IMG/VR virus record: IMGVR_UViG_3300006752_004376
Reading direction: 5' to 3' (one strand)
DNA length: 64,000 bases
Origin: an uncultured virus (IMG/VR IMGVR_UViG_3300006752_004376)
Lineage: Duplodnaviria; Heunggongvirae; Uroviricota; Caudoviricetes
The notes beneath the pieces were generated by a model. It was not told the DNA's origin and did not search any database. It worked only from the letters and a program-made list of their open reading frames with translations. A program made the translations under genes and the position numbers. Shown piece by piece: positions 1 to 62,474 of this stretch (the stretch's first letter is position 1; each line of letters opens with the position of its first letter).

Positions 1-270
1 CACAACCTGAGCCTATGCCTCAGCCACAGCCAGAACCTATGCCACAGCCAAATACTGAGTCAGCACCACAACCTGAGCCACAACCTGAGCCACAACCTGA
101 GCCACAAACAGAACCACAACCTGAGCCTATGCCAGAGCCGCAAACGGAACCACAACCACAACCACAACCAAGTCCAGCTCCTGCACCAGCTCCTGCGCCA
201 GCACCGGCTCCTGCACCAGCTCCTAAGACACAACCTAAGCCACAGCCTAAACCACAACCTAAACCAAATC
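1..270 (+). repeat. Coding tandem repeat (PQPE/PA/PQPK)n
   Basis: Repeats of CCACAACCTGAG, GCTCCTGCACCA and CAACCTAAA/G. Confidence 0.95.
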
Positions 271-25804: not shown

Positions 25805-26637
25805 ACCCACGTAATGGTGCATATTTAAAGAGATTTGCTGAGGATTATATGTTTGAGCATTGGTTAAACGATCTAGAAAATAAAGGCGGTTACCTTGCGT
25901 CTAGTTATGTCAATTGGAACATACTACATAGTCCATTACATGATGTTGTAAAACAATTAGAACACTTTAGAAGTCTACCATTTGAACAGATACTTGAATT
26001 CCATGAATCCGAAGTAACAAATAATGAAATGCAAGATAGAAATGTTATGGAAGATGTAAGCAAAATATTTTATCTTACCGAGTGTGTACAATACGAAGAA
26101 CTAAGATTTCATCCACAAATTATACACGAGCCTTGGGCTAATAGATACAGAGTACATCCTGGTAGCGGCAGGCTTATTGCGTTATGGTTAAATGGTTATG
26201 AAAGTATCAAAACTATATACACACATTTCAATGAACCAGCATTTATTCCACCTGGAGAATGTTTTAAAATAACAAATAAACGACAAGCATATAAAGAATT
26301 TCAGTTTTCAAGGCAAAGCGATCTTCTTAGCATAGAAACGTATTCAGCATTTCCAAAAACTAAAAATGATTGTGTGAGAACCCATCACTACGATCATGAA
26401 TGGGAATGGAAACATATAACCACTGATATTGATTGGAAGTTTATGAGGTTTAGTGAAGGGCCAGAATTTTTAGAACATAAGTCTACTTGGAGAAGTTATA
26501 TTATCGATGCTTGGGAAGATCTAAGAAATGATCATATACAAATTGGATCATGTCAATTTAACTTTGAAAAAGGTAGGGTTGTTGATGTTATTAGAAATTT
26601 AGGTAGCCGATCAGTACGTCATGTTTTAACTGCATAA
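25795..26637 (+). CDS. Hypothetical protein
   Basis: 280-aa ORF; HPGSGR weakly ParB-like. Confidence 0.65.
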   Translation: MSIDPRNGAYLKRFAEDYMFEHWLNDLENKGGYLASSYVNWNILHSPLHDVVKQLEHFRSLPFEQILEFHESEVTNNEMQDRNVMEDVSKIFYLTECVQYEELRFHPQIIHEPWANRYRVHPGSGRLIALWLNGYESIKTIYTHFNEPAFIPPGECFKITNKRQAYKEFQFSRQSDLLSIETYSAFPKTKNDCVRTHHYDHEWEWKHITTDIDWKFMRFSEGPEFLEHKSTWRSYIIDAWEDLRNDHIQIGSCQFNFEKGRVVDVIRNLGSRSVRHVLTA

Positions 26638-27298
26638 GCGGTTCTTTAGCACCCCAATTATATCCCTCTAAATGTTTTATATATCTATCTAGTCCAGTTT
26701 CCGGCTCTGGATCTAATGAGAATTGTTTAGAAAAATGACCTGGACTTGCAACGTGTACATCCATATGATGATCATGGAATGCTTTATGTGCTAGTTTTGA
26801 TTCTATTGTAATTTGTTTTATTGCATTTTCTTGTGTTTTATAAAATTCTTTATAATGTGGATATGGAGTTTCAATGCCTCCTACACTAGTCCAACCAAGT
26901 ACACACATTTCAGGAGGTCTTGTTACAGTAACAAACTTTGCTTCTGGAAAGTTTTCAATCATCCAATCCCAATTATAAATGAATTGATGACAACGTACAA
27001 TATAATGTTTTTTAGTATCCCATTCTGCCCACGCAGAAGTTATCTCATTAAATATATGTTCTTTTGAAAGTGTATTAATTTTGTCAAAGTCTTTGCCAAG
27101 TTCATTGCCTGGTCCAAAATAAACACCTGTGTGTCTTACGCCGCCATATATAGCATCGTGTACCATTAATCGTTCTTCAGTACGATCTGACGTACTTACA
27201 TTAAGTTTAGGTGCCTCACTTAACACCCAACTAACCGCACTCCATTTACTACCAGGAGCACCAGTTATAAAAATTACATTACTGAAGTCTACCATCAA
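26591..27298 (-). CDS. Sulfotransferase-like P-loop protein
   Basis: IFITGAPGSKWS; VRCH..FPEAKFVTVTR. Confidence 0.6.
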   Translation of the reverse strand: MMVDFSNVIFITGAPGSKWSAVSWVLSEAPKLNVSTSDRTEERLMVHDAIYGGVRHTGVYFGPGNELGKDFDKINTLSKEHIFNEITSAWAEWDTKKHYIVRCHQFIYNWDWMIENFPEAKFVTVTRPPEMCVLGWTSVGGIETPYPHYKEFYKTQENAIKQITIESKLAHKAFHDHHMDVHVASPGHFSKQFSLDPEPETGLDRYIKHLEGYNWGAKEPLMQLKHDVLIGYLNF

Positions 27299-28034
27299 GC
27301 CACCTTTTTATTTCTTTGTAATTAAATTTTGTTGTAGTATTAAACACTCTTGGGTGATCAATTGCTTTTCTAAAAATACTATTAGAAAACATCTTAGCAT
27401 ATATTTCTTTTTTAAGTTTATCTTCTAATGCTTCTGTGTAAAACTTTTTCTTACGTTCAAAAGCCCATATGTCTGCTACAGTTAAATCTTCTTTTCTACT
27501 ATGTAATATTTTTAAAAATGCTAGGTATTCATTATCTTCTGGAACTACACCATAATGCTTTACATAACCTGGAAACTTTGCAGTTGTTTGCATGTAACGA
27601 TCAGTTACAGTTTTTGGATCATGTATAATATTAAAAATAATACTATTAGGAAAATACTCTAATAGTTTACTAGGCATACTATGTGTACAATATAATACAC
27701 GTTTACCATCATTGATAATATCTTCACCACCATTTTCTTTAAACAATTCATCAAACTTTTTGTAGTATTGTTTCTCATTGGGTAGATATTTTTCTACATA
27801 ATCATGTGTAGGTGGAAGTTTACCCTTTGGAGTTATTCTATCAAAATGATATCTACTTGTTTTACGTTGTCCACTATAATCATTTACCTTGCCTACATTC
27901 CAAGGATTGATTCCGTTTTCTTCGCAACTGTACCAATGCATACATGGCATAGTAGCTAATACTCTTGCTAGTCTATGTCCACTTGCTCCTGGTTCAAAAC
28001 TAACAAATACATGTTTGTTTTCTAGTTTACGCAT
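27279..28034 (-). CDS. Sulfotransferase-like P-loop protein
   Basis: FVSFEPGASGHRL; CTH..YFPNS. Confidence 0.5.
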   Translation of the reverse strand: MRKLENKHVFVSFEPGASGHRLARVLATMPCMHWYSCEENGINPWNVGKVNDYSGQRKTSRYHFDRITPKGKLPPTHDYVEKYLPNEKQYYKKFDELFKENGGEDIINDGKRVLYCTHSMPSKLLEYFPNSIIFNIIHDPKTVTDRYMQTTAKFPGYVKHYGVVPEDNEYLAFLKILHSRKEDLTVADIWAFERKKKFYTEALEDKLKKEIYAKMFSNSIFRKAIDHPRVFNTTTKFNYKEIKRWLDGRLQ

Positions 28035-28704
28035 TTTTTCTCCCTATGTACCAGTAGATATTATCTTTATATTCTACTAAGTCACCTGTTGCAAACCAAT
28101 CATCATATACACAAATATCACCTTTGACATATAACTCACCGTCTACAACTTTAGTTTCACAGTAAGTGGTATCGCCCATAATACTTTCTGTATGATTTAC
28201 AATATCACCTTTATTAAATGTTTTATTAATAGCAACTGGTCCTACTTCGCTCATGCCCCAATTAGCAATAAACGTAGCACCTTGTTCTATAAATGCTTTA
28301 ATAGTACTACTATGTACTCTATCACTTCCACACATAATTGTTATACCATTTAAATCAAGTGTCTTAAATGTTTTTGTAGCTATAACAGCTCTTGCCATAT
28401 TAGGTGTAAGATGTGAATGTGTATAGTTTGTAATATTCTTAACCCATCTAAATGCATTAAATGATTCAACATGTACATCTGCATCAACTGCTATAGCTGG
28501 TAGTGTTTGTGCAAGTAATCCACCTGCATGTTCTAATGTACAAACAGTATACACTTTACTAAATTTATTTAATTTCTGACACTCTACTGCGGCCTTGTTT
28601 GCAAAGTATAATTTTTCAGCACTTTGTTTTATTGGTTTACTTGGACCAGTTGTTCCACTAGTGTAAATTGTACAGCCTTCATTTATTATCTTTAGTAAGT
28701 TCAT
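28027..28704 (-). CDS. Minimal ANL-family adenylate-forming (AMP-binding) protein
   Basis: YTSGTTGPSK, WGMSE, ATGDL, IGRK; only 225 aa. Confidence 0.85.
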   Translation of the reverse strand: MNLLKIINEGCTIYTSGTTGPSKPIKQSAEKLYFANKAAVECQKLNKFSKVYTVCTLEHAGGLLAQTLPAIAVDADVHVESFNAFRWVKNITNYTHSHLTPNMARAVIATKTFKTLDLNGITIMCGSDRVHSSTIKAFIEQGATFIANWGMSEVGPVAINKTFNKGDIVNHTESIMGDTTYCETKVVDGELYVKGDICVYDDWFATGDLVEYKDNIYWYIGRKNA

Positions 28705-28969
28705 CTTTTAACTTTTTCCAATCTGGATGTTGCGGCAAATATTTGTGTAGTCCTATTGCTTGGTTTATAACCATTTCTAATAACTTAAAATTAAATAGAG
28801 GTGGAAATATACCATGTATAATACTAGCAAATGCCATAAACAATTGTTTACCTGCTTCTCTAAATGCAATGTACATATGTATAAAATAATGTACTATTGG
28901 ATTCTTTTTCTGCCTATTGTTTAAGGAATCTGCTATTCCTAAATGTTTCCAATCAAACCAATGTTTCAT
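28679..28969 (-). CDS. DUF6356-like small protein
   Basis: YFIHM..A..IHGIFPPLF. Confidence 0.55.
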   Translation of the reverse strand: MKHWFDWKHLGIADSLNNRQKKNPIVHYFIHMYIAFREAGKQLFMAFASIIHGIFPPLFNFKLLEMVINQAIGLHKYLPQHPDWKKLKDELTKDNK

Positions 28970-29465
28970 AATATTTTTCTAAATTTAATTTCCATACTGA
29001 TTGTTTTGTTCCGTATATTTCTTCTTCAGTAAAGAAACTAACTATTCCTTGTTTAGCTAACAGATGAAATAATCTATCTGTTCTATTCATTTTTCCACTT
29101 GCATCATTTTCTACATTTGTTGTAATGTATGCAGGTTGTGTATCTGAGCTTTGTGCCCATTTAATTTGTTCTGGTAATATCCATTTCCATGGTATGCTTG
29201 TCATATGATTTTTACTTAATCCAGTTTGTGCAGGCATTGTTTGTACGCCTCTAAACAGCATACGATGCCCGTCATGAAACTTATGACAACCCGCCATTGA
29301 TACAATTACATCATTGTGATAAGCCGCCCACCATTCGCCTTTGTGCTTCTTACACCAATCATATTTCATTGCATCTAAATTAGCATTGTTCATATAACCC
29401 ATATCTTCGCATATATAACCGAAGAATTCTATATCTCTTTTACCTGGATCTTGTTTTACTAGCAT
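28953..29465 (-). CDS. GNAT-fold acyltransferase-like protein
   Basis: IVSMAGCH..RMLFRG; similar layout to 31535..32098. Confidence 0.45.
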   Translation of the reverse strand: MLVKQDPGKRDIEFFGYICEDMGYMNNANLDAMKYDWCKKHKGEWWAAYHNDVIVSMAGCHKFHDGHRMLFRGVQTMPAQTGLSKNHMTSIPWKWILPEQIKWAQSSDTQPAYITTNVENDASGKMNRTDRLFHLLAKQGIVSFFTEEEIYGTKQSVWKLNLEKYYETLV

Positions 29466-29471
29466 TACTTT

Positions 29472-29538
29472 ATTATATACATACTTATTTATCTGTCAAT
29501 CAGTTATTGACAAAATGTCATAAATAATGTAATATAAT
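29472..29538. promoter_or_regulatory. Back-to-back divergent promoters
   Basis: TGTCAAT-CAGTT-ATTGACA supplies both -35 boxes; minus TATAAT 29477-29472, plus TAATAT 29530-29535. Confidence 0.8.
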
Positions 29539-29571
29539 GGAAATACTTCAGAAGAGGTAAGGAGAAATAGA

Positions 29572-29844
29572 ATGGCTTTTATTAGAACTGCAGATTTAGT
29601 TACAAACAATAGTAACACTTATGCAACAATTGAAGAATGGATTGCAGAACATGGCAGATGTGGGTTATACAATGATCAGTATATTCAAAACGGTACAATG
29701 TCAGTAAACGAAGCTGGCAACGGCGTTAGAATTGTGTTAGAATATATTGATGAAGCAGCAATGACAGCACACCGTGAAGCATTCGCTGATGAAATTGCGG
29801 CAGCACAATTTACATCAACTATTGTTTCAGACGTAACTGAATAA
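29572..29844 (+). CDS. 90-aa acidic protein, possible dimeric alpha-beta barrel
   Basis: TAAGGAG RBS; VLEYIDEAAMTAH. Confidence 0.7.
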   Translation: MAFIRTADLVTNNSNTYATIEEWIAEHGRCGLYNDQYIQNGTMSVNEAGNGVRIVLEYIDEAAMTAHREAFADEIAAAQFTSTIVSDVTE

Positions 29845-29865
29845 TAACAACCAGAAGGAAACCAA

Positions 29866-30591
29866 GTGTTTCGTAAAATAACAACAACACATAAACTTCT
29901 TTCAATACATACGTTTTGTCACTTAATGCTTATTCCTGCTTTTATGTATGGTGAGCTTTGGATGTTCATAATAAGTTTTTTATGGTGGCAATGGATTGCC
30001 GCTTCAGCGATTAGTGCAGGTTATCACAGATACTTTAGTCACGGATCGTTTGAAGCGCCTAATTGGTACAGATACTATGTACAAGTATTAGGAATGTTTG
30101 CTAACCCAGGACCAGTGTTAACTTGGGCAAGTACACATAGAATGCATCATGCATATACAGATACTGCTAAAGATCCTCATAGTCCAACACTAAAAGGATT
30201 CTTTAAAGTGTATACTAGTCAATGGGGAAATGATGTTACAATTGAAAGAAAAATGATCAAGGGATTAGTCACTACTGATACAAAATTCTTCCACAATAAT
30301 TATTTTATATTAATAGGATTGCTAATGGTATTATTATATATCATAAGCCCTATGATATTTTTATTTGGATTTTGTGTTCCTGTAGTATTAGCCTTCCATG
30401 GTTATGGATTAGTAAATTTAATTCCACATACTGAAAACGGCAAACCTAAAAATAGTTGGTTTGCAAATATATTAACAGCTGGTGAAGGATGGCATAAAAA
30501 CCATCATGACGATTCAAGAAACTGGCGTATAGGCAAGACACCGTGGCAGTGGGATCCAGGTGCTTGGTTCATTAAATTAATAAAGAGGTAA
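29866..30591 (+). CDS. Membrane fatty acid desaturase (delta-9-like)
   Basis: His boxes HRYFSH, HRMHH, HKNHH; GEGWH. Confidence 0.92.
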   Translation: MFRKITTTHKLLSIHTFCHLMLIPAFMYGELWMFIISFLWWQWIAASAISAGYHRYFSHGSFEAPNWYRYYVQVLGMFANPGPVLTWASTHRMHHAYTDTAKDPHSPTLKGFFKVYTSQWGNDVTIERKMIKGLVTTDTKFFHNNYFILIGLLMVLLYIISPMIFLFGFCVPVVLAFHGYGLVNLIPHTENGKPKNSWFANILTAGEGWHKNHHDDSRNWRIGKTPWQWDPGAWFIKLIKR

Positions 30592-30593
30592 AA

Positions 30594-31535
30594 ATGTTTA
30601 AACCAGTAGAATATAATTTGGATATGAGAGATCCAGATAATTGGCATGAAGTATGCAGAAACCAACCAAAAGATGTTATCGCATATATTCCAGGTGCTAA
30701 CTTGCACGAACAAGAACTATTAGATGGAGCAACAAGTATAGGTAAACTATACAGTCCACGTAATGCAGGATTTGATGTTTACTTTGAACATAAAGACTAT
30801 CCAGGTATTAGTAGAGTAACAAATGAAAAAGACAAAGACGGAAAGTTTGTTGGATTATTTCCTGAAAGCGAATTAGGCTGGCACAACAACGGCAACTGGC
30901 GTCATTGGAAACATGTTATTGAAAGTTGTATTGCTTTTTATTGTGTTCGTCCAGGTGAGCAAGTTGTAACAAGTTATTTAAATAGTCATCAAGCATATGT
31001 AGACTTGCCACAAGATTTAAAAGATACTGCTGACAAATATGAATATTGGGCACAGTTTGATAAAGATAATAGCATTTATCAATTTGATGATGATAGTCTT
31101 AATAAAGGTATGGATGAATTACTTGCTATATTTGAAGGTAACTTAAAGAGTACAGGACGTAAAGGTAAAAACGATCTTAATCCTGTAAGAGGAAGTTGGA
31201 AACCTTTAATTGTACAACATCCTTTTAGAACAATTCCTGGTTGGTGGGATCAAGAAAATAGCCCAAGAGCAATTTACACAGGACACTTTGGTGTAATGCG
31301 TAAATTACGTAATAAAGAAACTGGTGAAGAAATTACATTGCAAGAAGCAAAACCATTATTAGATGCATTGCATAAACATTTGTTTCAACCACAGTATATG
31401 TACCACCATCATTGGAAAGAAGGTGACTTAATTATTAACGATCAGTTTATGAGTTACCATGCACGTAATGCAGTTAAAGGAGATAGACTACTTTATCGTA
31501 TTGCGTTTAATTATAAATTTCTTAAAGAAAAATAA
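30594..31535 (+). CDS. TauD/TfdA-family dioxygenase with atypical HxN motif
   Basis: LGWHNNG, HHWKEGDLIINDQ..HAR, RLLYR. Confidence 0.85.
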   Translation: MFKPVEYNLDMRDPDNWHEVCRNQPKDVIAYIPGANLHEQELLDGATSIGKLYSPRNAGFDVYFEHKDYPGISRVTNEKDKDGKFVGLFPESELGWHNNGNWRHWKHVIESCIAFYCVRPGEQVVTSYLNSHQAYVDLPQDLKDTADKYEYWAQFDKDNSIYQFDDDSLNKGMDELLAIFEGNLKSTGRKGKNDLNPVRGSWKPLIVQHPFRTIPGWWDQENSPRAIYTGHFGVMRKLRNKETGEEITLQEAKPLLDALHKHLFQPQYMYHHHWKEGDLIINDQFMSYHARNAVKGDRLLYRIAFNYKFLKEK

Positions 31536-32098
31536 TGCATACGGAAACTACAGACTGGATACCACTAGAACTTATTACACTATTTGAAGAATCACTTAAA
31601 GATAGTTTAAATAGAATGCCTCATAATTATGAAATAGAAAGTTTAAGTAGTGATGAGAACTTATGCTATAGTGTAACGTGGGACGATGAAGGTGATCCAA
31701 TCGCAGGTAGTGTAGCAAGAACAAGAGATTTTTATAATGGCGGTGTAAGAGTATTAAGTAGATACTATACAAGTAAAAAACTTAATGTTGCACAAAAAGG
31801 ATTAAGAATACATAAATATCATGTAAAGGGTTTGAGTACATTTACTGCTGAACATGCAGATCAACAAGTAGATTTTGCAATTGCAAATGGAATACATAAA
31901 CACTTTATTAGTAGAGAGCATGGAAATTTTAAAGTAATGCGTAATCTACACAGAGGTTTAAATTATAATTGCAAATACAAAGATTGGGTATTAGAAGATT
32001 ATGAATGGCAAACTGCACCATGCGATGGTGATGAATGCTGGCAACATATAATTTGGAGGGGTGAGAATCCATTAACAAATGACTATAGAAAAATATAA
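31535..32098 (+). CDS. GNAT-fold-like protein
   Basis: PIAGSV..VRVLSRYY..FISRE. Confidence 0.45.
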   Translation: MHTETTDWIPLELITLFEESLKDSLNRMPHNYEIESLSSDENLCYSVTWDDEGDPIAGSVARTRDFYNGGVRVLSRYYTSKKLNVAQKGLRIHKYHVKGLSTFTAEHADQQVDFAIANGIHKHFISREHGNFKVMRNLHRGLNYNCKYKDWVLEDYEWQTAPCDGDECWQHIIWRGENPLTNDYRKI

Positions 32099-32828
32099 AT
32101 TTTTACACAATATAAAAGTAGATGATATTAGTTCTACTTTAGTTAAAGACTTTCAAAACGGCGCATATGGTATCATATGCGTAGAAGATGCCAACGAAGA
32201 TACTATTAATCAATTTGGTAAATTACTTGATCAAGATATGTATGGTCGTAAAAAAGTTACAATTGGTATAGAAGATGACAAGGGCGAAAAATTAAATCAT
32301 GCAACAGATATGCTTTGGCATCAAGACCGAGCATACAGTAAAGACATTCATCCGTTTGTAGGATTATATTGTATTAGAGCAGATAAAGGATCTAGCAAAA
32401 CACATTATTTAGATATGCAAGGTGTATATAAAGATAGCAGTAATGATTTAAAAGAAAAAGCAAAAGACATTAAATGTGTTAATAGTATTACAAAGTACAT
32501 GAGTCAAGAAGAATATCCCTATAATTTTAAAAGCAAGTTACAAGAACGTGCTTGGAGAAGGTTTAATAGGGCGACACATGATTTAGTATGGAAAGATGAT
32601 TATGGCCCATACTACTTTTACAGTGAAGCATATACTGAAACTGAATTAGAACCACAATTAAAAGAGGAGATATATAAAGAACAACACATGTATTCTCATC
32701 AGTGGAAACCTAAACAACTTTTGGTATATAATAATCATAAGGTATTGCATAAACGAGATGCAACACCAGAAACAGTGGTAAGACAACATATTAGATATGC
32801 TCTTGACAGAAACACTGAATTAGTGTAA
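32079..32828 (+). CDS. TauD/TfdA-family dioxygenase
   Basis: WHQD, HQWKPKQLLVYNN..LHKR. Confidence 0.85.
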   Translation: MTIEKYKFLHNIKVDDISSTLVKDFQNGAYGIICVEDANEDTINQFGKLLDQDMYGRKKVTIGIEDDKGEKLNHATDMLWHQDRAYSKDIHPFVGLYCIRADKGSSKTHYLDMQGVYKDSSNDLKEKAKDIKCVNSITKYMSQEEYPYNFKSKLQERAWRRFNRATHDLVWKDDYGPYYFYSEAYTETELEPQLKEEIYKEQHMYSHQWKPKQLLVYNNHKVLHKRDATPETVVRQHIRYALDRNTELV

Positions 32829-32859: not shown

Positions 32860-33066
32860 ATGACTATAACAGGTAAAATAAAATGGTTCAATGCTACTAA
32901 AGGCTACGGATTCATTACTAGACACGACGGCGAAAAAGACGTATTCGTGCATTCATCAGCAGTAACATCATCAGGACTTAACGGTCTTAATGAAGGTGAT
33001 GAAATTGTGTTTGAAGTTGCTGAAACTCCAAAAGGTTTATCAGCAATTAACTTAAAAAACGCATAA
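32860..33066 (+). CDS. cspA: Cold-shock protein
   Basis: GKIKWFNATKGYGFI, DVFVH. Confidence 0.96.
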   Translation: MTITGKIKWFNATKGYGFITRHDGEKDVFVHSSAVTSSGLNGLNEGDEIVFEVAETPKGLSAINLKNA

Positions 33067-33072
33067 CATAAA

Positions 33073-33115
33073 TGAGGTCTTGGGCGTCATCCCTCAATAA
33101 AGATTCTGCCGCCAA
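33073..33115 (+). ncRNA. Candidate preQ1-I-like pseudoknot cis-regulatory RNA
   Basis: TGAGG/CCTCA stem; loop GGCG pairs with downstream CGCC; A-rich linker; 5' of queD. Confidence 0.55.
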
Positions 33116-33135
33116 TATTATATAGGAGAAAACTA

Positions 33136-33666
33136 ATGGCTTATTTTAGCACAAAAACATACGGACATAATATTGGACTTAGTGCAGTATTCCGTCAACC
33201 AAATGCAGATCATTCCCATTGTCATTTATTGCATGGGTATAGTTTAGCATTTAAATTCACATTTGGATGTGGAGAACTGGACAATAAAAATTGGGCAGTT
33301 GACTTTGGCGGATTAAAACCTCTGAAGGCTTGGCTTGAAGATTCGTTTGATCATAAAACGTGTATGGATAAAAATGATCCACATTTAGATAAAATGAAAG
33401 AACTAGACGCTATTGGCGTTTGTGAAATTAGATTATTTGATGGAGTGGGTTGTGAGAAGTTTGCATATCATGCATGGAACTTTGCAGACAAACTTATACG
33501 TGAAGCAACAAACAATCGTTGTTGGGTAGAATCTGTAGAGTGTTCAGAACACGGTGCAAACAGTGCAATTTATACACCTAATGCAGTAGTGACAAAACCA
33601 AGAGAACCGCAGACACGATTAGAACAAATGGAATACATTAGTTCGGACGCAGTGGCTCCTCAATAA
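33136..33666 (+). CDS. queD: 6-carboxytetrahydropterin synthase (QueD/PTPS)
   Basis: HCHLLHGY, VDFG, FDHK, ECSE. Confidence 0.9.
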   Translation: MAYFSTKTYGHNIGLSAVFRQPNADHSHCHLLHGYSLAFKFTFGCGELDNKNWAVDFGGLKPLKAWLEDSFDHKTCMDKNDPHLDKMKELDAIGVCEIRLFDGVGCEKFAYHAWNFADKLIREATNNRCWVESVECSEHGANSAIYTPNAVVTKPREPQTRLEQMEYISSDAVAPQ

Positions 33667-34653
33667 ATGGTAAGGGGAAAAATCTTGCCTCATCCAAATA
33701 AACCTTTGGTAGTACCTAATAAGCCTTTTATGGTAGCATTAGGTACTAGCCATACACATGGTGTATGTATGGATAATGAATTAGATAGAGTAAATGGTAA
33801 AACAGCTCATGAAATGATAGCAAATGAATTTGATTTTGATATTATAAGAATTGGGTTACCGGGTGCTAGTAATCAAGAACTATTACAGACAGCAAATGAA
33901 TTGTCTACAAAAAAAGTTTTTAGTGATAGCAATTGTAAATTGGTTATGCTAGAAGCTAGAATGTGCCAAGGACAATTAGATGTACCTTTTACTACAATAG
34001 GTAATCGACCTTATAGATTTACAGATCCAAATACTGGTTCAATGAACGATAAAGGCGATATTAACGAAATGGCACTAATAGAAGATCATCCAGCATGGGG
34101 CAAAGGTCATGCAGAAAATTGGGGTGACTCTTATGTAAGACAAATTTATGATACTGCAGGTGCTATGGGATTAAAAGAAAATCAACATTTAAAAATGCAT
34201 ACGGGTCTAAAGTATCCATTAAAAAAATACGAAGAAATTAATATGGAAATGAGGACTAAACCTCATGTTGATACGTATACATTACTTACTAGAACTCCAT
34301 ATCAGAATATGCAAGATATGACTTTTATTGATGCTATTAAAAATATAGTAGTAGGTAATGGAGTAAAATTTCTATGGGAATCATTTGATGCTAATATAAG
34401 ATGGTATAAAAATGCAAAATTAATTTTTGGTGATACCAGTAACATTTTTGATTATTGTGTTAATGAACACCAAACTATAAGAGAAAGAATTGTTTGTTTA
34501 GATGGAGTTAACCCTGACGGTTCTCCTTTTACATACGATGGTAAAAATGCCGAAGAAATGTTATGTTCATGTCATCATGCAAATGATACAGGACATAGAT
34601 TTTGGTTTAACTTTATGCTTCCAAAAGTTAAGGAAGTGCTAGGAAATATATGA
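33667..34653 (+). CDS. SGNH-like hypothetical protein
   Basis: LGTSHTHG, GASN, CHHAN. Confidence 0.55.
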   Translation: MVRGKILPHPNKPLVVPNKPFMVALGTSHTHGVCMDNELDRVNGKTAHEMIANEFDFDIIRIGLPGASNQELLQTANELSTKKVFSDSNCKLVMLEARMCQGQLDVPFTTIGNRPYRFTDPNTGSMNDKGDINEMALIEDHPAWGKGHAENWGDSYVRQIYDTAGAMGLKENQHLKMHTGLKYPLKKYEEINMEMRTKPHVDTYTLLTRTPYQNMQDMTFIDAIKNIVVGNGVKFLWESFDANIRWYKNAKLIFGDTSNIFDYCVNEHQTIRERIVCLDGVNPDGSPFTYDGKNAEEMLCSCHHANDTGHRFWFNFMLPKVKEVLGNI

Positions 34654-34946
34654 TTGATAAAGAAAAGATTGTAGAAAACTTACGAGTTGTATATGATCCA
34701 GAAATCAGTATAAACGTATATGATTTAGGCCTTATATATGAAATAAATATTGATAAAGCACATGTTAATATAGTAATGACATTGACGAGTGCATTTTGTC
34801 CAGCCGCAGACGAGATCATAGCGGAAGTTCACGAAGCAGTAACAAATGTTGAGAACGTTGAAACATGTGATGTTAAAATAACGTTTGACCCACCTTTTGG
34901 GCCAGATAAAATGAGTGAAGATACAAGATTAATTTTAGGAGTGTAA
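34650..34946 (+). CDS. SufT/DUF59 Fe-S assembly protein
   Basis: VYDPEISINVYDLGLIY, MTLTSAFCP. Confidence 0.92.
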   Translation: MIDKEKIVENLRVVYDPEISINVYDLGLIYEINIDKAHVNIVMTLTSAFCPAADEIIAEVHEAVTNVENVETCDVKITFDPPFGPDKMSEDTRLILGV

Positions 34947-34952
34947 TATAAA

Positions 34953-35300
34953 GTGACATACTTAGTAACAGAAAATTGTATTAAATGTAAACATACAGAT
35001 TGCGTTGAAGTTTGTCCTGTAGATTGTTTCTATGAAGGTGAAAACTTTCTAGTAATTAATCCAGACGAATGTATTGATTGTGGTGTATGTGAACCAGAAT
35101 GTCCAGTAGATGCGATTGTTGCTGACGGAGTATTAGAAGGTTCGGAATTAGCTTATTGGATGAAAGTTAATACGGATATGTCTGAGAAATGGCCAAACAT
35201 AACTCAGATGAAAGACCCACCACCAGATCATAAAGAATGGGATGGAAAACCAAACAAACGTGAATTACTTTCTGAAGAACCAGGAGAAGGAGACTTATAA
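34953..35300 (+). CDS. fdxA: 7Fe ferredoxin
   Basis: [30 protein letters not shown]. Confidence 0.95.
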
Positions 35301-35869
35301 TGTTAGGAGCACCGTTCTTAGTAGTAGGTAGAGAAGCATTAGAAATAATGTTTATAACATTAATGATTACAACATTTATTAAATTAAATTGGAGTATGTA
35401 TGCATCTGCAATGTTAGGTACTGTCGCAGGAATTTTTGCAGGTTGGCAAATAGGAAACGTATTAGAATCCCATGAATCAACTATGTACTTATTTTTATCA
35501 GTATTAATGCTTTACTTATTTTTTACAGCAGATAAAACAGGGCAACAAATTGCCGCAAGTATTGAAAAAATAGGATCATCTAGTACTGCTAATTGGGCTG
35601 GATTAATTACAATGTTTATTATTTGGGCTAGAGAAAGTTCTGAGATATTTATTTTCATGTTGATGCCAGCTAATAATACTATGTCAGGTTGGTTGTCAGC
35701 ATCAGTTGCAGTTGGATTAGTTATTGGAATGTTCCCAATAATTCAAAACAAAGTATCAGCTAATGTGTTGTTTAAAGTTACACGTTATGCATTTTTAGTA
35801 TTTGCATTATGGTTTGGTTATGAAGCATTAATGCATTGGCACACAATTGAACATGAACATGTTCTATAA
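35300..35869 (+). CDS. FTR1-like iron permease
   Basis: Multi-pass with two RExxE motifs (REALE, RESSE). Confidence 0.7.
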   Translation: MLGAPFLVVGREALEIMFITLMITTFIKLNWSMYASAMLGTVAGIFAGWQIGNVLESHESTMYLFLSVLMLYLFFTADKTGQQIAASIEKIGSSSTANWAGLITMFIIWARESSEIFIFMLMPANNTMSGWLSASVAVGLVIGMFPIIQNKVSANVLFKVTRYAFLVFALWFGYEALMHWHTIEHEHVL

Positions 35870-35879
35870 AGGAAAAAAT

Positions 35880-36047
35880 ATGTACGATATAATTTATACA
35901 CCTAGAATACACGACGAAGTTTCTGTCGCACGTTTCAACACTGAAACAGAAGCACAGAAATATTTAGAAAAGATTAAAGAGGTACGCCCGAAGGCATATC
36001 CTCACCACAGAATAGAACTAGTGGTAAACAAAGGAGAAGAAGTATGA
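35880..36047 (+). CDS. Small hypothetical protein
   Basis: AAGGA RBS; start revised to 35880. Confidence 0.6.
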   Translation: MYDIIYTPRIHDEVSVARFNTETEAQKYLEKIKEVRPKAYPHHRIELVVNKGEEV

Positions 36048-36196
36048 CATTTTTAGTATGGCATTTACTAGCCATTGGTACAGTAATGGCACTATCTTTT
36101 TTTGCTGGTTATAAGTTTGCTAGACGTAAAGAAGATAAAATTGAACGTAGTATTCATATGATGGATATTAGGAAAACGAGGTACAAATATGAGTAA
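36044..36196 (+). CDS. 50-aa membrane protein (absent from ORF track)
   Basis: AAGGAG RBS, ATGA overlap; MTFLVWHLLAIGTVMALSFF. Confidence 0.65.
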   Translation: MTFLVWHLLAIGTVMALSFFAGYKFARRKEDKIERSIHMMDIRKTRYKYE

Positions 36197-36533
36197 GTCT
36201 AAAGAAGAGTTGCTTAAAGAAATTGATAAAGTTATGGAAGAATATATTAACCCTAACGTTGCTCAGCACGGTGGACAAATTAATATACTTAAATTTGATG
36301 AAGAAACAGGAATTCTTCATACCCAAATGAGTGGTAGTTGTAGTGGATGTGCTAGCAGTACTGAAACACTTAAAATGGGTGTCGAATCAACACTAATGCA
36401 TTTCATTCCAGAAATCAAAGGAGTTACTAGTGAAGACGATCCTATGTATAACGATCCATACTACACTTCAGACCCTAGTGGGTACTATGATTTTCCTGGA
36501 GAAGAAGACTTCCCACCAACAGAAACGGAGTAA
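36189..36533 (+). CDS. NifU/NfuA C-terminal-domain Fe-S carrier
   Basis: INPNVAQHGG, GSCSGC, TLKMGVE. Confidence 0.92.
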   Translation: MSKSKEELLKEIDKVMEEYINPNVAQHGGQINILKFDEETGILHTQMSGSCSGCASSTETLKMGVESTLMHFIPEIKGVTSEDDPMYNDPYYTSDPSGYYDFPGEEDFPPTETE

Positions 36534-36535
36534 CA

Positions 36536-36721
36536 ATGTCAGATTTAACAAGTTACAAGAAAAAAGTTCGTGATAGAGAACGTAAGATTCGTGATAGAGA
36601 ACGTAAAATTGAAGATTGCGAAATTCGTATTAGCGACCTTAATGAAGAAATACAAGAATTAAAAGAAGAAATTGTTGAGTACAGTGCAATTATGGATAAA
36701 ATTAAGAAAGTATCTGTATAA
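36536..36721 (+). CDS. Coiled-coil protein with heptad duplication
   Basis: RDRERK twice; 21-nt period at 36567-36606. Confidence 0.7.
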   Translation: MSDLTSYKKKVRDRERKIRDRERKIEDCEIRISDLNEEIQELKEEIVEYSAIMDKIKKVSV

Positions 36722-37002
36722 TGGCTGTTAAAGTATTTTTCATTGCAAAAATAAAAGAATTTAATGATGAATACAAAGACTATGTAACCAGGGTAAGAGA
36801 CTTAGGTGAAAAGCATCCTGGTTTTATTAGCTTAGAAAGCGAAGAAATTGGCGACATTGAAATTACTATTACTACTTGGAAAAGTAGAGAAGATGTTGCA
36901 GACTGGGCAAAAGATCCAACTCATATGAGTGCAAAACGCAAATGGCGTGAATGGTATCATTGGGTAAAAGGAATACACGTAGACACAGTTGACGAAGAGT
37001 GA
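36721..37002 (+). CDS. Antibiotic biosynthesis monooxygenase (ABM)-like protein
   Basis: PGFIS..ITITTW..W..DPTH..A. Confidence 0.8.
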   Translation: MAVKVFFIAKIKEFNDEYKDYVTRVRDLGEKHPGFISLESEEIGDIEITITTWKSREDVADWAKDPTHMSAKRKWREWYHWVKGIHVDTVDEE

Positions 37003-37187
37003 AACATAAAATGGAATACAAAAACATAGAAATTAATACAGACGAAGCTGACAAGTTTGGTATATCAGATAGAGAACTTATTAAGACATTATATAAAAAA
37101 GTAATTATCTTAGAAGATCGTATTAATAGTTTAGAAGTTGATAATGAAGCTCACGAAGAGTGGATCAAACAACGAGAAAATAGATGA
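36999..37187 (+). CDS. Hypothetical protein
   Basis: Overlapping operon ORF. Confidence 0.6.
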   Translation: MKHKMEYKNIEINTDEADKFGISDRELIKTLYKKVIILEDRINSLEVDNEAHEEWIKQRENR

Positions 37188-37711
37188 AATCAATTAAAAA
37201 ATTTATAAGAACAGTTCCCGACTATCCTGTAAAAGGTGTTAATTTTTATGACTTAAACAGTCTTTTTAGTAGCAATGTATGGGGCGATTGTGTACGACTA
37301 TTAGCAACACAATGTGAAGAAAAATTTGATGATGCATACATTACTCATATTGTAGGCATTGAAAGTAGAGGTTTTGTACTTGGTTCTGCGTTAGCACAAG
37401 AAATGTTACTACCTTTTACAATGGTTCGTAAAAAAGGTGCTAAATACCCAGGAGTACTATTAGAAGAAACTTACGAACTTGAATATGGAAGTGATACACT
37501 AACATTACAAGAAGGTATTTTAGGTCAAACTAGCAGAGTATTAATTGCAGATGACCTTATAGCAACCGGAGGTAGCATGTTAGCTACTAAGAGATTGGTC
37601 GAGAAAACAGGTGCCCAAGTCGTTGGCGCAGTAACAATTGTTAACTTAGAATATCTCAACGAGGGCCTCCAAGATTTAGGAATGGTCCAATTGTACGGAG
37701 CAAAAGAATGA
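37184..37711 (+). CDS. apt: Adenine phosphoribosyltransferase
   Basis: PDYP, GIESRGF, YELEYG, LIADDLIATGGS. Confidence 0.95.
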   Translation: MKSIKKFIRTVPDYPVKGVNFYDLNSLFSSNVWGDCVRLLATQCEEKFDDAYITHIVGIESRGFVLGSALAQEMLLPFTMVRKKGAKYPGVLLEETYELEYGSDTLTLQEGILGQTSRVLIADDLIATGGSMLATKRLVEKTGAQVVGAVTIVNLEYLNEGLQDLGMVQLYGAKE

Positions 37712-38091
37712 TTAAAATTACTAAAGAAGCATCTGAACATCTTAAAGGAATTGCTGAAGCAAATGATGGGAAAATTCCTGTACTTGGTATGCGTGGTGGT
37801 GGATGTGCAGGTTTTAGTTACGACTGGAAATTAAAAGAAGAATCAGAACTTGACACTAAATTAGATCATGTTATACTTATGGATAACGGGCAAAAGATGG
37901 CCGTTGATGCGTCAAGTATTATGTTTTTAGTAGGTACAACACTAGAACTAAAAAAAGACTTATTTGGAACTACATTAGAAATTGTTAATCCATCAGCTTC
38001 AAGTAGTTGTGGTTGTGGAGAGAGTATTAATTTTGACATGGATAAAGTAGAAGAAAACGCAAAAACATTTAAATTACCTGAAGTGGAATAA
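37708..38091 (+). CDS. A-type Fe-S carrier (IscA/SufA/HesB)
   Basis: GGGCAGFSY, CGCGES. Confidence 0.95.
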   Translation: MIKITKEASEHLKGIAEANDGKIPVLGMRGGGCAGFSYDWKLKEESELDTKLDHVILMDNGQKMAVDASSIMFLVGTTLELKKDLFGTTLEIVNPSASSSCGCGESINFDMDKVEENAKTFKLPEVE

Positions 38092-38094
38092 AAC

Positions 38095-38508
38095 ATGACT
38101 AATATAATTAACTTAAATGCGTACAAAGACTTTGTACAAGAAGTAACTAGTGACGCATCAAACGATGTTGACGTAATGCATAAGCAAATGAAAGACATCG
38201 AAGAAGAGACAGGCGTAAAAATGGCAACACTGTTAACTGGTGCAGTAGGCATTAGTGCAGAAGGTGGTGAGTTTATGGAAATTGTAAAGAAATGCATTTT
38301 TCAAGGAAAGCCAATGTCAGAAGAAACGCAATTTCATGCTAAACGAGAACTAGGAGATATCATGTGGTATTGGATTAATAGTTGTCGTGCATTAGGAATT
38401 GACCCAAACGAAGTTATTGCAGAAAATGTGCGTAAATTAGAAGCACGTTATCCTGGCGGATCATTTGATCCATATTATAGTGAGAACAGACAAAAAGGTG
38501 ATTTATGA
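38095..38508 (+). CDS. MazG-like NTP pyrophosphohydrolase
   Basis: EGGEFMEIVKK, ELGDIMWY, KLEARY. Confidence 0.9.
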   Translation: MTNIINLNAYKDFVQEVTSDASNDVDVMHKQMKDIEEETGVKMATLLTGAVGISAEGGEFMEIVKKCIFQGKPMSEETQFHAKRELGDIMWYWINSCRALGIDPNEVIAENVRKLEARYPGGSFDPYYSENRQKGDL

Positions 38509-38951
38509 TTGACCTAGTAATTGGTTCAGATCATAGAGGTTATGAATACAAAAATTATATCTCAGAATGGCTTACACCAATCGATGATACAAGATTTGAT
38601 ATTACAACATTTTTAGATTGCGGTCCATACGATAGCAAAAAAGTTGACTACCCTGCAATTGCACTTAATTTAGCCAGAGAAATATCAAGTAAAGTTTTTA
38701 ATAAAGGAATCCTAATTTGTGGATCAGGATTTGGTGTACAAATTTCAGCAAATAGAGTACCAGGTGTAAGAGCTGTAGTATGTAGAAATGTTCGTGATGC
38801 AGAGATGTCCAGAAGGCACAATGATGCAAACGTTTTATGTTTAGGTGCTGACTTTACTACCAAAGCTGATGCAAAAAAAATTATTGATAAATTTATGACA
38901 ACAGAATTTGAAGGTGGAAGACATCAAAAAAGAGTGGACATGATAAGATGA
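38505..38951 (+). CDS. rpiB: Ribose-5-phosphate isomerase B
   Basis: GSDHRG, ICGSG, RRHNDANVL, FEGGRH. Confidence 0.95.
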   Translation: MIDLVIGSDHRGYEYKNYISEWLTPIDDTRFDITTFLDCGPYDSKKVDYPAIALNLAREISSKVFNKGILICGSGFGVQISANRVPGVRAVVCRNVRDAEMSRRHNDANVLCLGADFTTKADAKKIIDKFMTTEFEGGRHQKRVDMIR

Positions 38952-45430: not shown

Positions 45431-45871
45431 ATGAATAGAAAATTTTTAATATGGTGGATGATTGCCGTAATGCAATCAATTGCACTAGGTATTGCTTTTT
45501 ATTTTGGAGCAGTACAATTTTTAATTGACAACGATGTTACAAGACTAAGTTTTGTAATTATTTTAATGTGGTTAGTAACTACTATTATTATAGGATATAG
45601 AAGTTTTAAAAACATTTCAGACTTTGACATGCCATGGTTTGTAGCAGAATCATGTATGACTGTAGGTATGGTAGGAACTGTTGTAGGTTTTATGCTGATG
45701 TTAGGCAGTAGCTTTGCAGAAATTGATCCAAGCAATATTGAAAGTATGAGACAAGTTATTATTGACATGGCATCAGGAATGAGTACTGCATTGCTAACAA
45801 CACTTTCTGGCTTAGTTGCAAGTTTATTTGTTAAAGTACAAGTAGTAATGCAAGAGCAAAAAAATGCCTAG
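45431..45871 (+). CDS. MotA/TolQ/ExbB proton channel family protein
   Basis: GMVGTVVGF and GMSTALLTTLSGL. Confidence 0.85.
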   Translation: MNRKFLIWWMIAVMQSIALGIAFYFGAVQFLIDNDVTRLSFVIILMWLVTTIIIGYRSFKNISDFDMPWFVAESCMTVGMVGTVVGFMLMLGSSFAEIDPSNIESMRQVIIDMASGMSTALLTTLSGLVASLFVKVQVVMQEQKNA

Positions 45872-46460
45872 GCGTCCCTCAAATAATTTATCATTTAATG
45901 ATCTGCTATTCAATATTCTTATTGGATTTGTATTACTATTTGTAATAGCTTTTTTATTAATTAATCCTATTACAAAAAAGTCTGATATTCCAGTTAAAGC
46001 AGAGTTTATTATTACTGTTGAATGGGATCCAGAAGCAGTAGATGATGTTGATTTATGGGTACAACTAGATAAAAATAAACCAGTAGGATTTAGCAATAGA
46101 GAAGATACTCCGTTACACCTAGACAGAGACGATTTAGGTACTACAAATGACTTAGTAGTAATTGACGGTGTTACTAAAACTTTAAAAACTAATAGAGAAT
46201 CAACAACTTTAAGAGGAATAGTTCCAGGCGATTATTTTGTGGCTGTACATGCATATTCAAAGAAAGCCGCACTAATACCTTATACGGTTACAGTACTAAA
46301 AGTTAATCCGTATAGACAAGTTTATAGTATATCAGGTACATTATATTCAAATAGAGAAATACAAAGATTACCAGCATTTACAGTTGATTCAAGAGGTAAT
46401 GTCACGTCAATATTTGAACACTTTAAAAGCATAGTACCATCAAAAGGAGCAGTACAATGA
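45864..46460 (+). CDS. ExbD/MotB-like single-pass partner with beta-rich periplasmic domain
   Basis: SFNDLLF TM Asp; EWD..DVDLWV. Confidence 0.65.
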   Translation: MPRRPSNNLSFNDLLFNILIGFVLLFVIAFLLINPITKKSDIPVKAEFIITVEWDPEAVDDVDLWVQLDKNKPVGFSNREDTPLHLDRDDLGTTNDLVVIDGVTKTLKTNRESTTLRGIVPGDYFVAVHAYSKKAALIPYTVTVLKVNPYRQVYSISGTLYSNREIQRLPAFTVDSRGNVTSIFEHFKSIVPSKGAVQ

Positions 46461-46987
46461 TTTACTTAGCTACTACTTTATTATTTACATTAGCAGTTGT
46501 TACAGTTTATGCAATTATACAAACAGGTAAACATAGATTAATTACATTCTTTTTAATTCCACTTGTGTTAATAAGCAGTCTATATACAGGTTATACAATT
46601 TATGCATTACAAGGAACTCCTATTAATGGAATACCCGAAGGTGAAGTTGAAGTAATTTGGTCTGAGGTACAAAAACCTCATATATTTTATATGGTAAGAA
46701 AAGAAGGTGAAACAAAACCTTTGTATTTTGCTTTACCTTATACAAAAGAAAATGCTAAGAAATTTGCAGAATTAGAAGAACAACGTGAAGGTGGACAAGT
46801 ACCAGTTGGAGAATTTAGAGATACAAACTTAGAAAATAAAGGAAGTTTGTCTAGAAATATGGAAATAGAATTTGACGATATTACACGAACTCCACTTCCT
46901 CCTAAGAAAAAAGAGCTTAAAATGCAGGGTGTTGACCAGCGTATAATCAACGAAATACACAACAATACTGACGAAGCTCCAATTTAA
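46457..46987 (+). CDS. Two-TM membrane protein
   Basis: AAGGAG RBS, ATGA overlap. Confidence 0.75.
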   Translation: MIYLATTLLFTLAVVTVYAIIQTGKHRLITFFLIPLVLISSLYTGYTIYALQGTPINGIPEGEVEVIWSEVQKPHIFYMVRKEGETKPLYFALPYTKENAKKFAELEEQREGGQVPVGEFRDTNLENKGSLSRNMEIEFDDITRTPLPPKKKELKMQGVDQRIINEIHNNTDEAPI

Positions 46988-47879: not shown

Positions 47880-49055
47880 TTAATTGTCAAAGAATGTATC
47901 ATCACCGGGCCAAAGGGGCATAGCAGTTCCTGGTGCTCGTTTTGGTATTTTACTATCAGCACTTGATACACAAGATTTTGTAGTACACACTTTCGGACCA
48001 TCAAATAATTTAAATCCAGTTTCAATGTTACCTAAAGGTTGATCATGACATGAATAAGACCTTTTAACTGATCCATCAGGTTCACGTATAATTATACTAC
48101 GATATCCACTACTACATTCCCAACCTTCAAATTGATTAAAATTAAATGCATTGAATCTTTCAGCTTGATCCATATACCACGGATCACCTTTATCATCTCT
48201 AAATTCTACTTGCATGTTCCAAGGAACTGATGCTGTCTGTTTACGGAAATGATCATCAGGATCAATTTTAAATGTAGGCTTAGGTCTTGTTACTAATTTC
48301 TTTTGTTGTGCTTTAGCTTCAGTGTAACTACGTTGTGGCATACCGTTGTGTAATTTCTTTTTCATATCTTCTGTGTAACCATCAACAATTCTACTTGCAG
48401 TTGGATCACTCTGAGGTTTCAGTGTAACATTAATTCCTTGATTATGGAAGAATAATGCATTATCATAATATTCATCAAACAGTGCTGGCACCATTACCAT
48501 ATTAATTGTTACCTGTACATCATGTTCTTGGCATAGTATTAATTTGTCTGCTAAGTCTTGCATCTTCTCAGGTGTGTTTACGTGTTCAACATGTAAACTT
48601 GCTGTTATACTTGCCCTATGAAACTTACTAGCATAATCACAATATGTTTTAAACCATTTCATATTACGACTACAATTTGAAGTCATGTGTACACTTGTAT
48701 AATTTGTATTATGTACATCATCTGCTAAATGTTTTAACATATCTAAATAACCAGGATGAAATGTAGGCTCACCTCCACTTAAACTAAAATGAAAACTATT
48801 AAATCCACGTTCACGTGCTTGACGTTTAATCTCATCAATTGTTTTTAAATTAAGTTCTGTAGGTCTGTGATCTTTACGACTACTTCTAGCATAAGGCCAA
48901 CAATAGCTACAGTTATAATTGCAAAATCTTCCAATTAACCAACTAACAGTAAACATATCTCTATATAACATATTACGTTGACCAACACGTACTAACTTGT
49001 CATACGGTGTTTTAGTAAAATCGTATTCACTCCATTTTAAATCTTTATCTTCCAT
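47880..49055 (-). CDS. Radical SAM protein with C-terminal twitch/SPASM domain
   Basis: CNYNCSYC, GGEP; WECSSG..YSC..CTTKSC. Confidence 0.9.
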   Translation of the reverse strand: MEDKDLKWSEYDFTKTPYDKLVRVGQRNMLYRDMFTVSWLIGRFCNYNCSYCWPYARSSRKDHRPTELNLKTIDEIKRQARERGFNSFHFSLSGGEPTFHPGYLDMLKHLADDVHNTNYTSVHMTSNCSRNMKWFKTYCDYASKFHRASITASLHVEHVNTPEKMQDLADKLILCQEHDVQVTINMVMVPALFDEYYDNALFFHNQGINVTLKPQSDPTASRIVDGYTEDMKKKLHNGMPQRSYTEAKAQQKKLVTRPKPTFKIDPDDHFRKQTASVPWNMQVEFRDDKGDPWYMDQAERFNAFNFNQFEGWECSSGYRSIIIREPDGSVKRSYSCHDQPLGNIETGFKLFDGPKVCTTKSCVSSADSKIPKRAPGTAMPLWPGDDTFFDN

Positions 49056-49058
49056 TTA

Positions 49059-53279: not shown

Positions 53280-53668
53280 TTTTTATCTGTTATCCCTGAA
53301 TTATAAACTTCGTCCATCCAGTCATCTTTTCCTATTCTTAATCTGTGTACATGTTCTGGTAATGCTTTTGATAACTGTACATCAGCGGCACATATACATC
53401 TTGGCTTGTTGCATATAATAGTTTCTTGTGGCATTTCAAATCCATCATATATATTTCCTAGTTTGCCACCAACCTTGCATATAGCTCTATATACATCACC
53501 TGTGTTACTTATTGTAATATTTTGTACGCCTGCCCAACATTCCCAACCACGGAAATCGTTCTCATCACGTGCCATAACATTGTTTACATTATCTTCTTCG
53601 CTTGTACCGTCTTCGTAGTGTACAATTATATTTTTAAAATTATTCAATTGTGTACCTCTCGAAATCAT
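53276..53668 (-). CDS. Stand-alone SPASM/twitch domain
   Basis: GWECWAG..AIC..LGNI..CNKPRCICAAD. Confidence 0.8.
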   Translation of the reverse strand: MISRGTQLNNFKNIIVHYEDGTSEEDNVNNVMARDENDFRGWECWAGVQNITISNTGDVYRAICKVGGKLGNIYDGFEMPQETIICNKPRCICAADVQLSKALPEHVHRLRIGKDDWMDEVYNSGITDKK

Positions 53669-57363: not shown

Positions 57364-57376
57364 TTATCTCACTTAC

Positions 57377-58042: not shown

Positions 58043-58074
58043 GACTATCTCCTAAGTTACATCACTATTTATGG

Positions 58075-62473: not shown

Positions 62474-62474
62474 G

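Follow-up and report, generated by a model that had tools for sequence, protein, structure and literature searches.

The ten genes at positions 26591..32828 of an uncultured virus (IMG/VR record IMGVR_UViG_3300006752_004376) form two back-to-back arms around one bidirectional promoter region and are the junction of two independently inherited tailoring modules, not one pathway. The stretch of DNA analyzed, hereafter the window, is 64,000 nucleotides (nt) long; an earlier note made from its sequence alone had proposed a single biosynthetic cluster for an acylated or oxidised lipid or small molecule. That proposal is supported only in part, because gene order and co-occurrence separate the left arm, which contains a half-size adenylating enzyme of the ANL superfamily (short ANL), from the right arm, which contains a desaturase and two TauD-type oxygenases. 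Our preferred explanation, on which we put slightly better than even odds, is that two independent phage tailoring modules lie under one bidirectional promoter and perform carrier-free acyl chemistry on host donors.

Reading outward from the promoter, the left arm encodes a GNAT-like protein (GNAT170), a DUF6356 protein, the short ANL, and two proteins with a sulfotransferase-like fold (ST1 and ST2). The right arm encodes p90, which belongs to no known family, the desaturase, a first oxygenase (TauD313), a second GNAT-like protein (GNAT187), and a second oxygenase (TauD249). Among the phage loci with a short ANL (the best 80 of 129 matches, with neighbors counted within 2.5 kb), GNAT170 was found in 75, ST1 in 64, DUF6356 in 49, ST2 in 35, p90 in 10, and the cluster's desaturase in 8. 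Two complete genomes, G011 and G019, contain the left arm and no GNAT187 orthologue, and their desaturases are only 27–31% identical to that of the cluster. When 26 records were searched (25 left-arm records and a positive control), GNAT187 matched the control alone and, apart from the control and G008, the desaturase matches were again 27–31% identical. The right arm was found without the left in L004 and L005, two records that are 11–25% complete and contain no short ANL. The earlier note had raised the question of whether the genes are scattered independently in relatives; they are not scattered singly, but they do travel as two separate blocks.

With such a distribution, it is distinctly unlikely that all ten genes form one integrated pathway whose one product is acylated, desaturated, oxidised, and sulfated. 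The genes are tightly packed and share a promoter pair, desaturase-TauD313-GNAT187-TauD249 follows p90 in close relatives, and the full ten-gene arrangement is intact in L017–L019 and L022, with ANL identity down to 72%, and begun in four cut loci; in other phages, an ANL, a GNAT, and a desaturase even lie in single operons (L168 and L210). However, 72/80 left-arm loci are without the cluster's desaturase, the two complete genomes are without right-arm orthologues, and the right arm is also found alone. In addition, L021 and L038 retain the promoter and p90 with other genes downstream, and neither a desaturase nor a TauD gene comes after p90. Because both elements persist there in front of different genes, we infer that the promoter and p90 belong with the left arm and that the right module was placed behind them.

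All ten open reading frames (ORFs) stand at the positions and on the strands first reported, five to an arm. Neighboring ORFs within an arm overlap by 1–26 nt or lie at most 21 nt apart, with a 106-nt spacer between the two arms. The ratios of nonsynonymous to synonymous substitution rates (dN/dS), computed against two relatives, were 0.02–0.19 across all ten genes; selection acts on all of them, and the genes are real and conserved. The region between the arms (29466..29571) holds the mirrored promoter pair that had been proposed to serve both, with facing TTGACA hexamers and, for each strand, a −10-like box and an ATAAATA heptamer between the hexamers. The minus-strand promoter, TTGACA-16-TATAAT (29499–29472), is a 12/12 sigma-70-type match, and the plus-strand promoter (29507–29535) a 10/12 match. 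None of 5000 base shuffles of the spacer yielded a comparable pair, and the mirrored layout was retained in 7/7 of the related spacers listed; promoter-like sites counted over the whole region were not above chance (29 found, 38 expected). As ATAAATA presumably resembles the T4 late promoter, early and late use of the spacer promoters is possible. The two −35 hexamers also constitute an inverted repeat (29494–29518), and a second short inverted repeat, imperfect in several relatives, overlaps the plus-strand −35; the repeats could be an operator.

The first gene behind the plus-strand promoter, p90 (29572..29844, plus strand), has 64 homologues, an invariant His27, and no Pfam or PDB match. 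It was rejected as a carrier protein on the basis of these homologues, which have no invariant Ser and show DS[LIMV] in 3/64 cases. An ABM/YdhR-type barrel, an idea taken from the sequence pattern, found no support from Pfam, PDB, or pairwise profile comparison.

The short ANL (28027..28704, minus strand; 225 aa; Pfam AMP-binding, E 2e-17) ends at the hinge Arg, a feature that the earlier note had missed. Within the searched range of 123–394 aa, 920 relatives were found, and motifs and lengths were counted in the best 120 of them, which are 223–246 aa long. The P-loop, WGMxE, TGD, and the hinge Arg (presumably the core motifs named A3, A5, A7, and hinge) are present in 119–120 of these 120 proteins, and at most seven residues follow the hinge in 117; the C-terminal subdomain is absent across the family. 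Structures were predicted for the short ANL and ST1, the other proteins being judged from sequence. The short-ANL model, with a predicted local distance difference test (pLDDT) score of 92, overlays approximately residues 60–410 of ANL chains of 480–500 aa and matches the ANL fold with a Z score of 21.7 and a root-mean-square deviation of 2.4 Å over 215 aligned residues. The enzyme thus shares its fold and core ATP motifs with the ANL superfamily (acyl-CoA synthetases, nonribosomal peptide synthetase (NRPS) A domains, and luciferases), but it is about half the size, lacking the entire C-terminal subdomain and a large share of the N-terminal part. C55, H59, H96, and H98, which are predicted to line the acid pocket, are invariant.

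The short ANL was rejected as a broken gene because its length is constant across the family and its dN/dS is 0.17–0.19. No separate gene for the missing subdomain was found in 4/5 phage records searched with PF13193, and in the fifth, G011, this domain occurs only within a full-length ANL. In the complete genome G019, the short ANL is the only AMP-binding gene, and no C-terminal subdomain is encoded. A 333-aa phage ANL in L168, with a short N-terminus and its C-terminal part kept, looks like an intermediate form in sequence. In ANL enzymes, the catalytic Lys resides in the C-terminal subdomain, which closes when the thioester is formed, and isolated N-terminal ANL domains turn over slowly. 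The structure search returned one N-terminal-domain-only ANL with an acyl-adenylate bound (PDB 5oe3). We found no match to the short ANL, GNAT170, or TauD249 in the annotated phage collection and, in the main texts of the open-access literature, no description of lidless, N-terminal-only adenylating enzymes of this kind.

Immediately upstream of the short ANL in 41/80 phage loci and in 34/61 genome-collection loci is the DUF6356 gene (28679..28969, minus strand; Pfam E 1e-5). Its product of 96 aa has one hydrophobic stretch, with H9, H31, and H52 invariant across 37 aligned rows; a carrier-protein check found no invariant Ser. Nothing beyond a table entry was found on DUF6356 in the open-access literature. 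GNAT170 (28953..29465, minus strand), the first gene of the left arm, has a single-protein Pfam E of 0.029; in its family, 7/45 members match Acetyltransf_1, weakly, and the family profile matches the GNAT structure 3t9y with E 0.0015 over its first 72 positions.

The core of the left module also includes ST1 (27279..28034, minus strand; 251 aa), which is predicted to have the P-loop fold of kinases and sulfotransferases, its loop being degenerate, and is fused to GNAT170 in two loci (L060 and L079). The single protein has no Pfam match. Its model (pLDDT 93) gave tied structure matches to MiaA (Z 9.3), TPST-1 (8.7), and guanylate kinase (8.5), so that prenyltransferases, sulfotransferases, and kinases are all represented; the best Foldseek rows were mostly sulfotransferases at E of about 0.01, with none at E ≤ 0.001. 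ST1 is homologous to ST2 (HHalign 90%), an accessory member of the module (26591..27295, minus strand; 234 aa from ATG; single-protein Pfam E 0.032). In the ST2 family, 12/28 members match Sulfotransfer_3, with a best E of 2.5e-5 and no curated cut-off applied, and H102 is invariant within a K/R-x-H motif. The sulfotransferases that use 3′-phosphoadenosine-5′-phosphosulfate have a basic residue in the 5′-phosphosulfate loop and a catalytic His. The alignments of the ST1 and ST2 families show an invariant His after the third strand and no invariant Lys in either loop. Sulfation by the left module is therefore a lead and not a result, given the tied fold matches of ST1 and the absence of a Foldseek match at E ≤ 0.001. 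Of the labels given in the earlier note, AMP-binding, DUF6356, desaturase, and TauD were upheld by Pfam; those of GNAT-like and sulfotransferase-like proteins found weak or no matches for the single proteins and gained support at the family level (7/45, 12/28, and HHalign 90–91%). Close to the left module, many phages carry TctA and a TctC-like gene (L036–L042, L071–L073, L077–L079, and L095).

Parts of the left module are shared with bacteria. A total of 62 genome-collection loci with a short ANL were found, and 61 were resolved; they place DUF6356 and the short ANL in SAR11, OM43, and other marine bacteria. In 24/25 SAR11 loci, the two genes lie with an SDR gene and a glucose/sorbosone dehydrogenase gene, in the order SDR, DUF6356, short ANL, dehydrogenase; in most of these loci a photolyase-related gene comes first, and tailoring genes are absent. 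The photolyase-related neighbors (L124, L144, and others) make a link to light stress possible. An unrooted tree of 82 of the 118 distinct short-ANL sequences required 9 changes for the genome rows, at least 6 of them forced by strong branches. A single bacterial clade of 30 rows was rejected by the approximately unbiased test (p 1.5e-43), with four long rows left out (L133, and L152, L153, and L156, which have phage-type neighbors). The latter three are genome-collection contigs and are possibly phage DNA binned into metagenome-assembled genomes. Repeated exchange of the short ANL between phages and bacteria is thus supported by the sequences; its direction is not given by the tree, which is unrooted.

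The SAR11 gene order also bears on a regulatory reading of the left module, in which the ANL without its lid and the P-loop protein with its degenerate loop would serve as nucleotide sensors and the GNAT would acetylate host or phage proteins. Such a role would agree with the position of the SAR11 pair between SDR and sugar-dehydrogenase genes, with the ST1 loop lacking a conserved Lys, and with a C-terminal subdomain that is absent from the family and not separately encoded in G019. It would not predict the invariance of the presumed acid-pocket residues, nor phage neighbors that are mostly tailoring enzymes, and we consider it quite improbable.

In the right module, the desaturase (29866..30591, plus strand; PF00487, E 4e-9) is a delta-9-like membrane di-iron fatty-acid desaturase with three intact His boxes, which align with those of human SCD1 (E 5e-10). 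In the phage collection, it matched only the cultured Pelagibacter phage Mosig and an Acinetobacter phage. The oxygenase that follows, TauD313 (30594..31535, plus strand), is otherwise a strong member of its Pfam family (PF02668, E 3e-19) and keeps the distal His289, Arg291, and Arg302, but it departs from the His-x-Asp/Glu...His triad: His97-x-Asn99 was found in 6/6 aligned sequences. This motif, also absent from the earlier note, is shared with the Mosig TauD (Mosig_00075; 30.5% identical, E 1.5e-31), whereas TauD249 (32079..32828, plus strand; PF02668, E 6e-19) and the SAR11 TauD proteins have His-x-Asp, with the alignment of TauD249 showing the canonical His-x-Asp...His triad. Across 42 related, Mosig-type phage loci, 59/60 TauD ORFs have His-x-Asn. 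No description of this variant of the facial triad was found in open-access main texts.

Between the two oxygenase genes lies GNAT187 (31535..32098, plus strand), a distant paralogue of GNAT170 (HHalign to the GNAT170 family 91%, E 1.2e-6). GNAT187 itself has no Pfam match, nor do any of 60 scanned relatives, and its Atlas neighbor cluster is 20% Acetyltransf_1. Its search gave 6 close clusters and 123 representatives at E ≤ 0.001, and its gene contexts come only from loci retrieved with other queries. As to a possible LuxI/FeeM-like placing of the GNATs, the GNAT187 profile gave no PDB match.

Variants of the right module occur elsewhere. A T4-like phage locus (L178) has the order desaturase-GNAT187-TauD249-type, and in Mosig one operon-like run ahead of the tail-fibre genes comprises a TauD, a desaturase (33%), and a GNAT that belongs to the same superfamily (E 8.7e-10). 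In the part of the Mosig genome announcement that we cite, these genes are not discussed (PMC7892664). In the Mosig-type loci, the desaturase lies within 5 kb of a His-x-Asn TauD in 30/42 cases and a GNAT does so in 25/42; all 12 desaturase-less loci have less than 2.6 kb of upstream DNA. Among 24 more distant phage loci with a desaturase, a GNAT-superfamily gene adjoins it in 9, which represent about three distinct contexts; no further GNAT of this kind occurs among the 394 ORFs of the 24 loci. Genes for ANL, FabF, or FabH accompany the desaturase in further phage clusters. In G011 (L210:6104-12551), an operon contains a full-length ANL, a Trp-halogenase-like gene, a desaturase, a GNAT170-type gene, a second desaturase, and FabF, and three acyl carrier protein (ACP) genes lie elsewhere; the gene preceding the operon's insertion is, we assume, MoxR-like. 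This operon ties the GNAT superfamily to acyl chemistry, and the acyl theme proposed for the cluster is also consistent with the adjoining desaturase and GNAT genes, some of which are accompanied by an ANL or a ketosynthase.

The same genes could be ordinary island cargo, with a plain delta-9 desaturase for membrane fluidity and the rest decorating glycans or proteins of the virion or cell surface. Phage desaturases with delta-9 activity are known in cyanophages (vFADs; Roitman et al. 2017, PMC5776448), and that of the cluster resembles them in being a phage-encoded membrane desaturase with three His boxes, but it differs from those in that source in its operon linkage to TauD and GNAT genes. 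Freshwater pelagimyophages carry fabF and a stearoyl-CoA desaturase (Zaragoza-Solas et al. 2020, PMC7029224). According to the same source, cassette turnover in the hypervariable islands that serve host recognition in marine T4-like phages is gradual, and the pelagimyophage host recognition cluster lies between VrlC and the neck gene gp14, with tail fibres. The swappable tailoring-enzyme cassettes of these large marine phages, and the Mosig trio beside its tail-fibre genes, fit this account. However, the genes flanking the present cluster encode a Hydrolase_2 cell-wall hydrolase and cold-shock, PTPS, and Fe-S proteins, and not VrlC, neck, or tail-fibre proteins; the spacer has strong sigma-70-type sites; and the association of the desaturase with a His-x-Asn TauD and with a GNAT would be unexpected for a stand-alone fluidity gene. 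The phage is, by its polymerase, an Atu_ph07/Phosso-like jumbo phage, and no description of its modules was found in PMC7029224. By analogy, the cluster resembles hypervariable-island cassettes and phage desaturases in a variant form, and we regard plain island cargo as unlikely, though it deserves to be kept in view.

Two other systems had been invoked in the earlier note. The terminal-alkyne cassettes JamABC and TtuABC combine an adenylating enzyme, a membrane desaturase, and an acyl carrier protein, and the isonitrile lipopeptide pathway ScoA-E combines an ANL-type gene, a carrier protein, a thioesterase, an NRPS, and the oxygenase ScoE. As in the former, an adenylating enzyme and a three-His-box membrane desaturase lie close together here, but they belong to separate modules, there is no carrier protein, and the ligase of 225 aa ends at the hinge and is not a full-length fatty acyl-AMP ligase. 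As in the latter, an ANL-type gene accompanies TauD-type oxygenases, and ScoE is among the PDB matches of the TauD profile; however, it ranks below TfdA/TauD, the ScoE model NF049937 scores TauD249 at 21.7 bits against a cut-off of 400 and does not match TauD313, and no carrier, NRPS, or thioesterase match was found among the ten genes and flanks. Because there is no carrier, the ligase is truncated, and the ScoE score is far below its cut-off, membership in either system fails by sequence, and both are analogies only. The absence of a carrier protein had been noted from the start: no PP-binding match was found in the cluster and flank proteins or in 45 other short ORFs of the window. There were none in G001, G031, G032, and G019 and three in the more distant G011. 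It is possible that a host ACP still supplies the carrier function.

The window is phage-borne, as proposed. It is AT-rich (GC 0.29–0.35), has phage-like content, and encodes a family B polymerase (PolB) and a clamp loader; the nearest PolB matches are those of the jumbo phages Phosso and Atu_ph07 (47.5–47.7% identity), and two complete phage relatives measure 343 and 383 kb. The ten cluster genes are similar to the PolB and clamp-loader genes in GC and in GC at third codon positions.

In the explanation that we prefer, one marine jumbo-phage group would have brought both modules under one bidirectional promoter. In the right module, the GNAT-like protein would most likely acylate an acceptor, with acyl-CoA or acyl-ACP of the host as the donor, and the desaturase and the Fe(II) oxygenases would desaturate and oxidise the acyl part, with the Asn-liganded TauD313 probably performing a non-standard step or binding iron weakly. 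In the left module, the half-size ANL would bind ATP and a small acid to form an acyl-adenylate. Since the enzyme has no lid, formation of a CoA or carrier thioester by the usual route is unlikely, and the adenylate would probably go straight to the neighboring GNAT or to an amine. ST1 and ST2 may modify or bind the same left-module product, and DUF6356 may be a partner that sits in the membrane or binds metal. The products of the two modules need not be one molecule, and the likeliest target would be a lipid of the envelope or a molecule at the surface, either of the infected cell or of the virion.

Several observations weigh against this explanation. The scores behind the GNAT and sulfotransferase assignments are weak, and GNAT170 and ST1 were found in 0/5 bacterial genomes (completeness not given) with DUF6356 and/or the short ANL; bacteria thus keep these two without GNAT170 or ST1, and pairing with the GNAT is not obligatory. 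The short ANL may be slow or inactive, as the subdomain bearing the catalytic Lys is absent. The closest TauD313 orthologues (68%), in L008–L010, are isolated and surrounded by head and replication genes of T4-like type, so that a TauD313-type enzyme can work without a nearby desaturase, and 15/24 distant desaturase loci have no adjacent GNAT. Finally, many loci are near-copies or cut contigs, and locus counts are not counts of independent events.

Other parts of the window hold genes that lie outside the two modules. Directly downstream is a host-like gene run (32860–38951, plus strand) with cold-shock, PTPS/QueD, Fe-S assembly, ferredoxin, NifU, phosphoribosyltransferase, MazG, and RpiB genes. 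A long ORF block (47880–63752, minus strand) includes several ORFs with radical-SAM-type Cys motifs and nitroreductase-like and SDR-like genes, labels assigned by eye; the sole ORF scanned in it (47883–49055) is a radical SAM gene by domain scan, and its relative sits directly upstream of the desaturase in L004 and L005. An ORF at 15–1229 (plus strand) opens with a long Pro/Gln/Glu repeat. A MotA/TolQ/ExbB-like gene is followed by two membrane-anchored ORFs (45431–46987, plus strand), and a comparable pair is present in L202.

The case for a ten-gene pathway is weaker than originally put forward. The interest of the finding lies in the modules and their odd enzymes, for which no description was found in the open-access literature. 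With at least 920 members, the conserved ANL family that has no C-terminal subdomain offers a test of how large a portion of an adenylating enzyme is required and of whether a partner can replace the lid, and it is common to phages and to SAR11, among the most abundant bacteria of the ocean. If a His-x-Asn iron site proves common in phage oxygenases, the 2-His-1-carboxylate rule would have to be broadened. Both matters can be tested, as the proteins are small and Mosig, which has the desaturase-TauD-GNAT trio, is in culture with its host HTCC1062. A bolder version, which we find tentative and rather unlikely, is that the short ANL is a working lidless ligase that hands its acyl-adenylate to a GNAT-fold partner to form an amide or ester with no CoA or carrier, and that the oxygenase with His-x-Asn represents a new class of iron ligation and performs non-hydroxylating chemistry on the desaturated chain. 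If this were true, marine phages would run a carrier-free acyl chemistry for which the open-access literature yielded no counterpart, and its core would have been exchanged several times with SAR11, OM43, and SAR116 bacteria.

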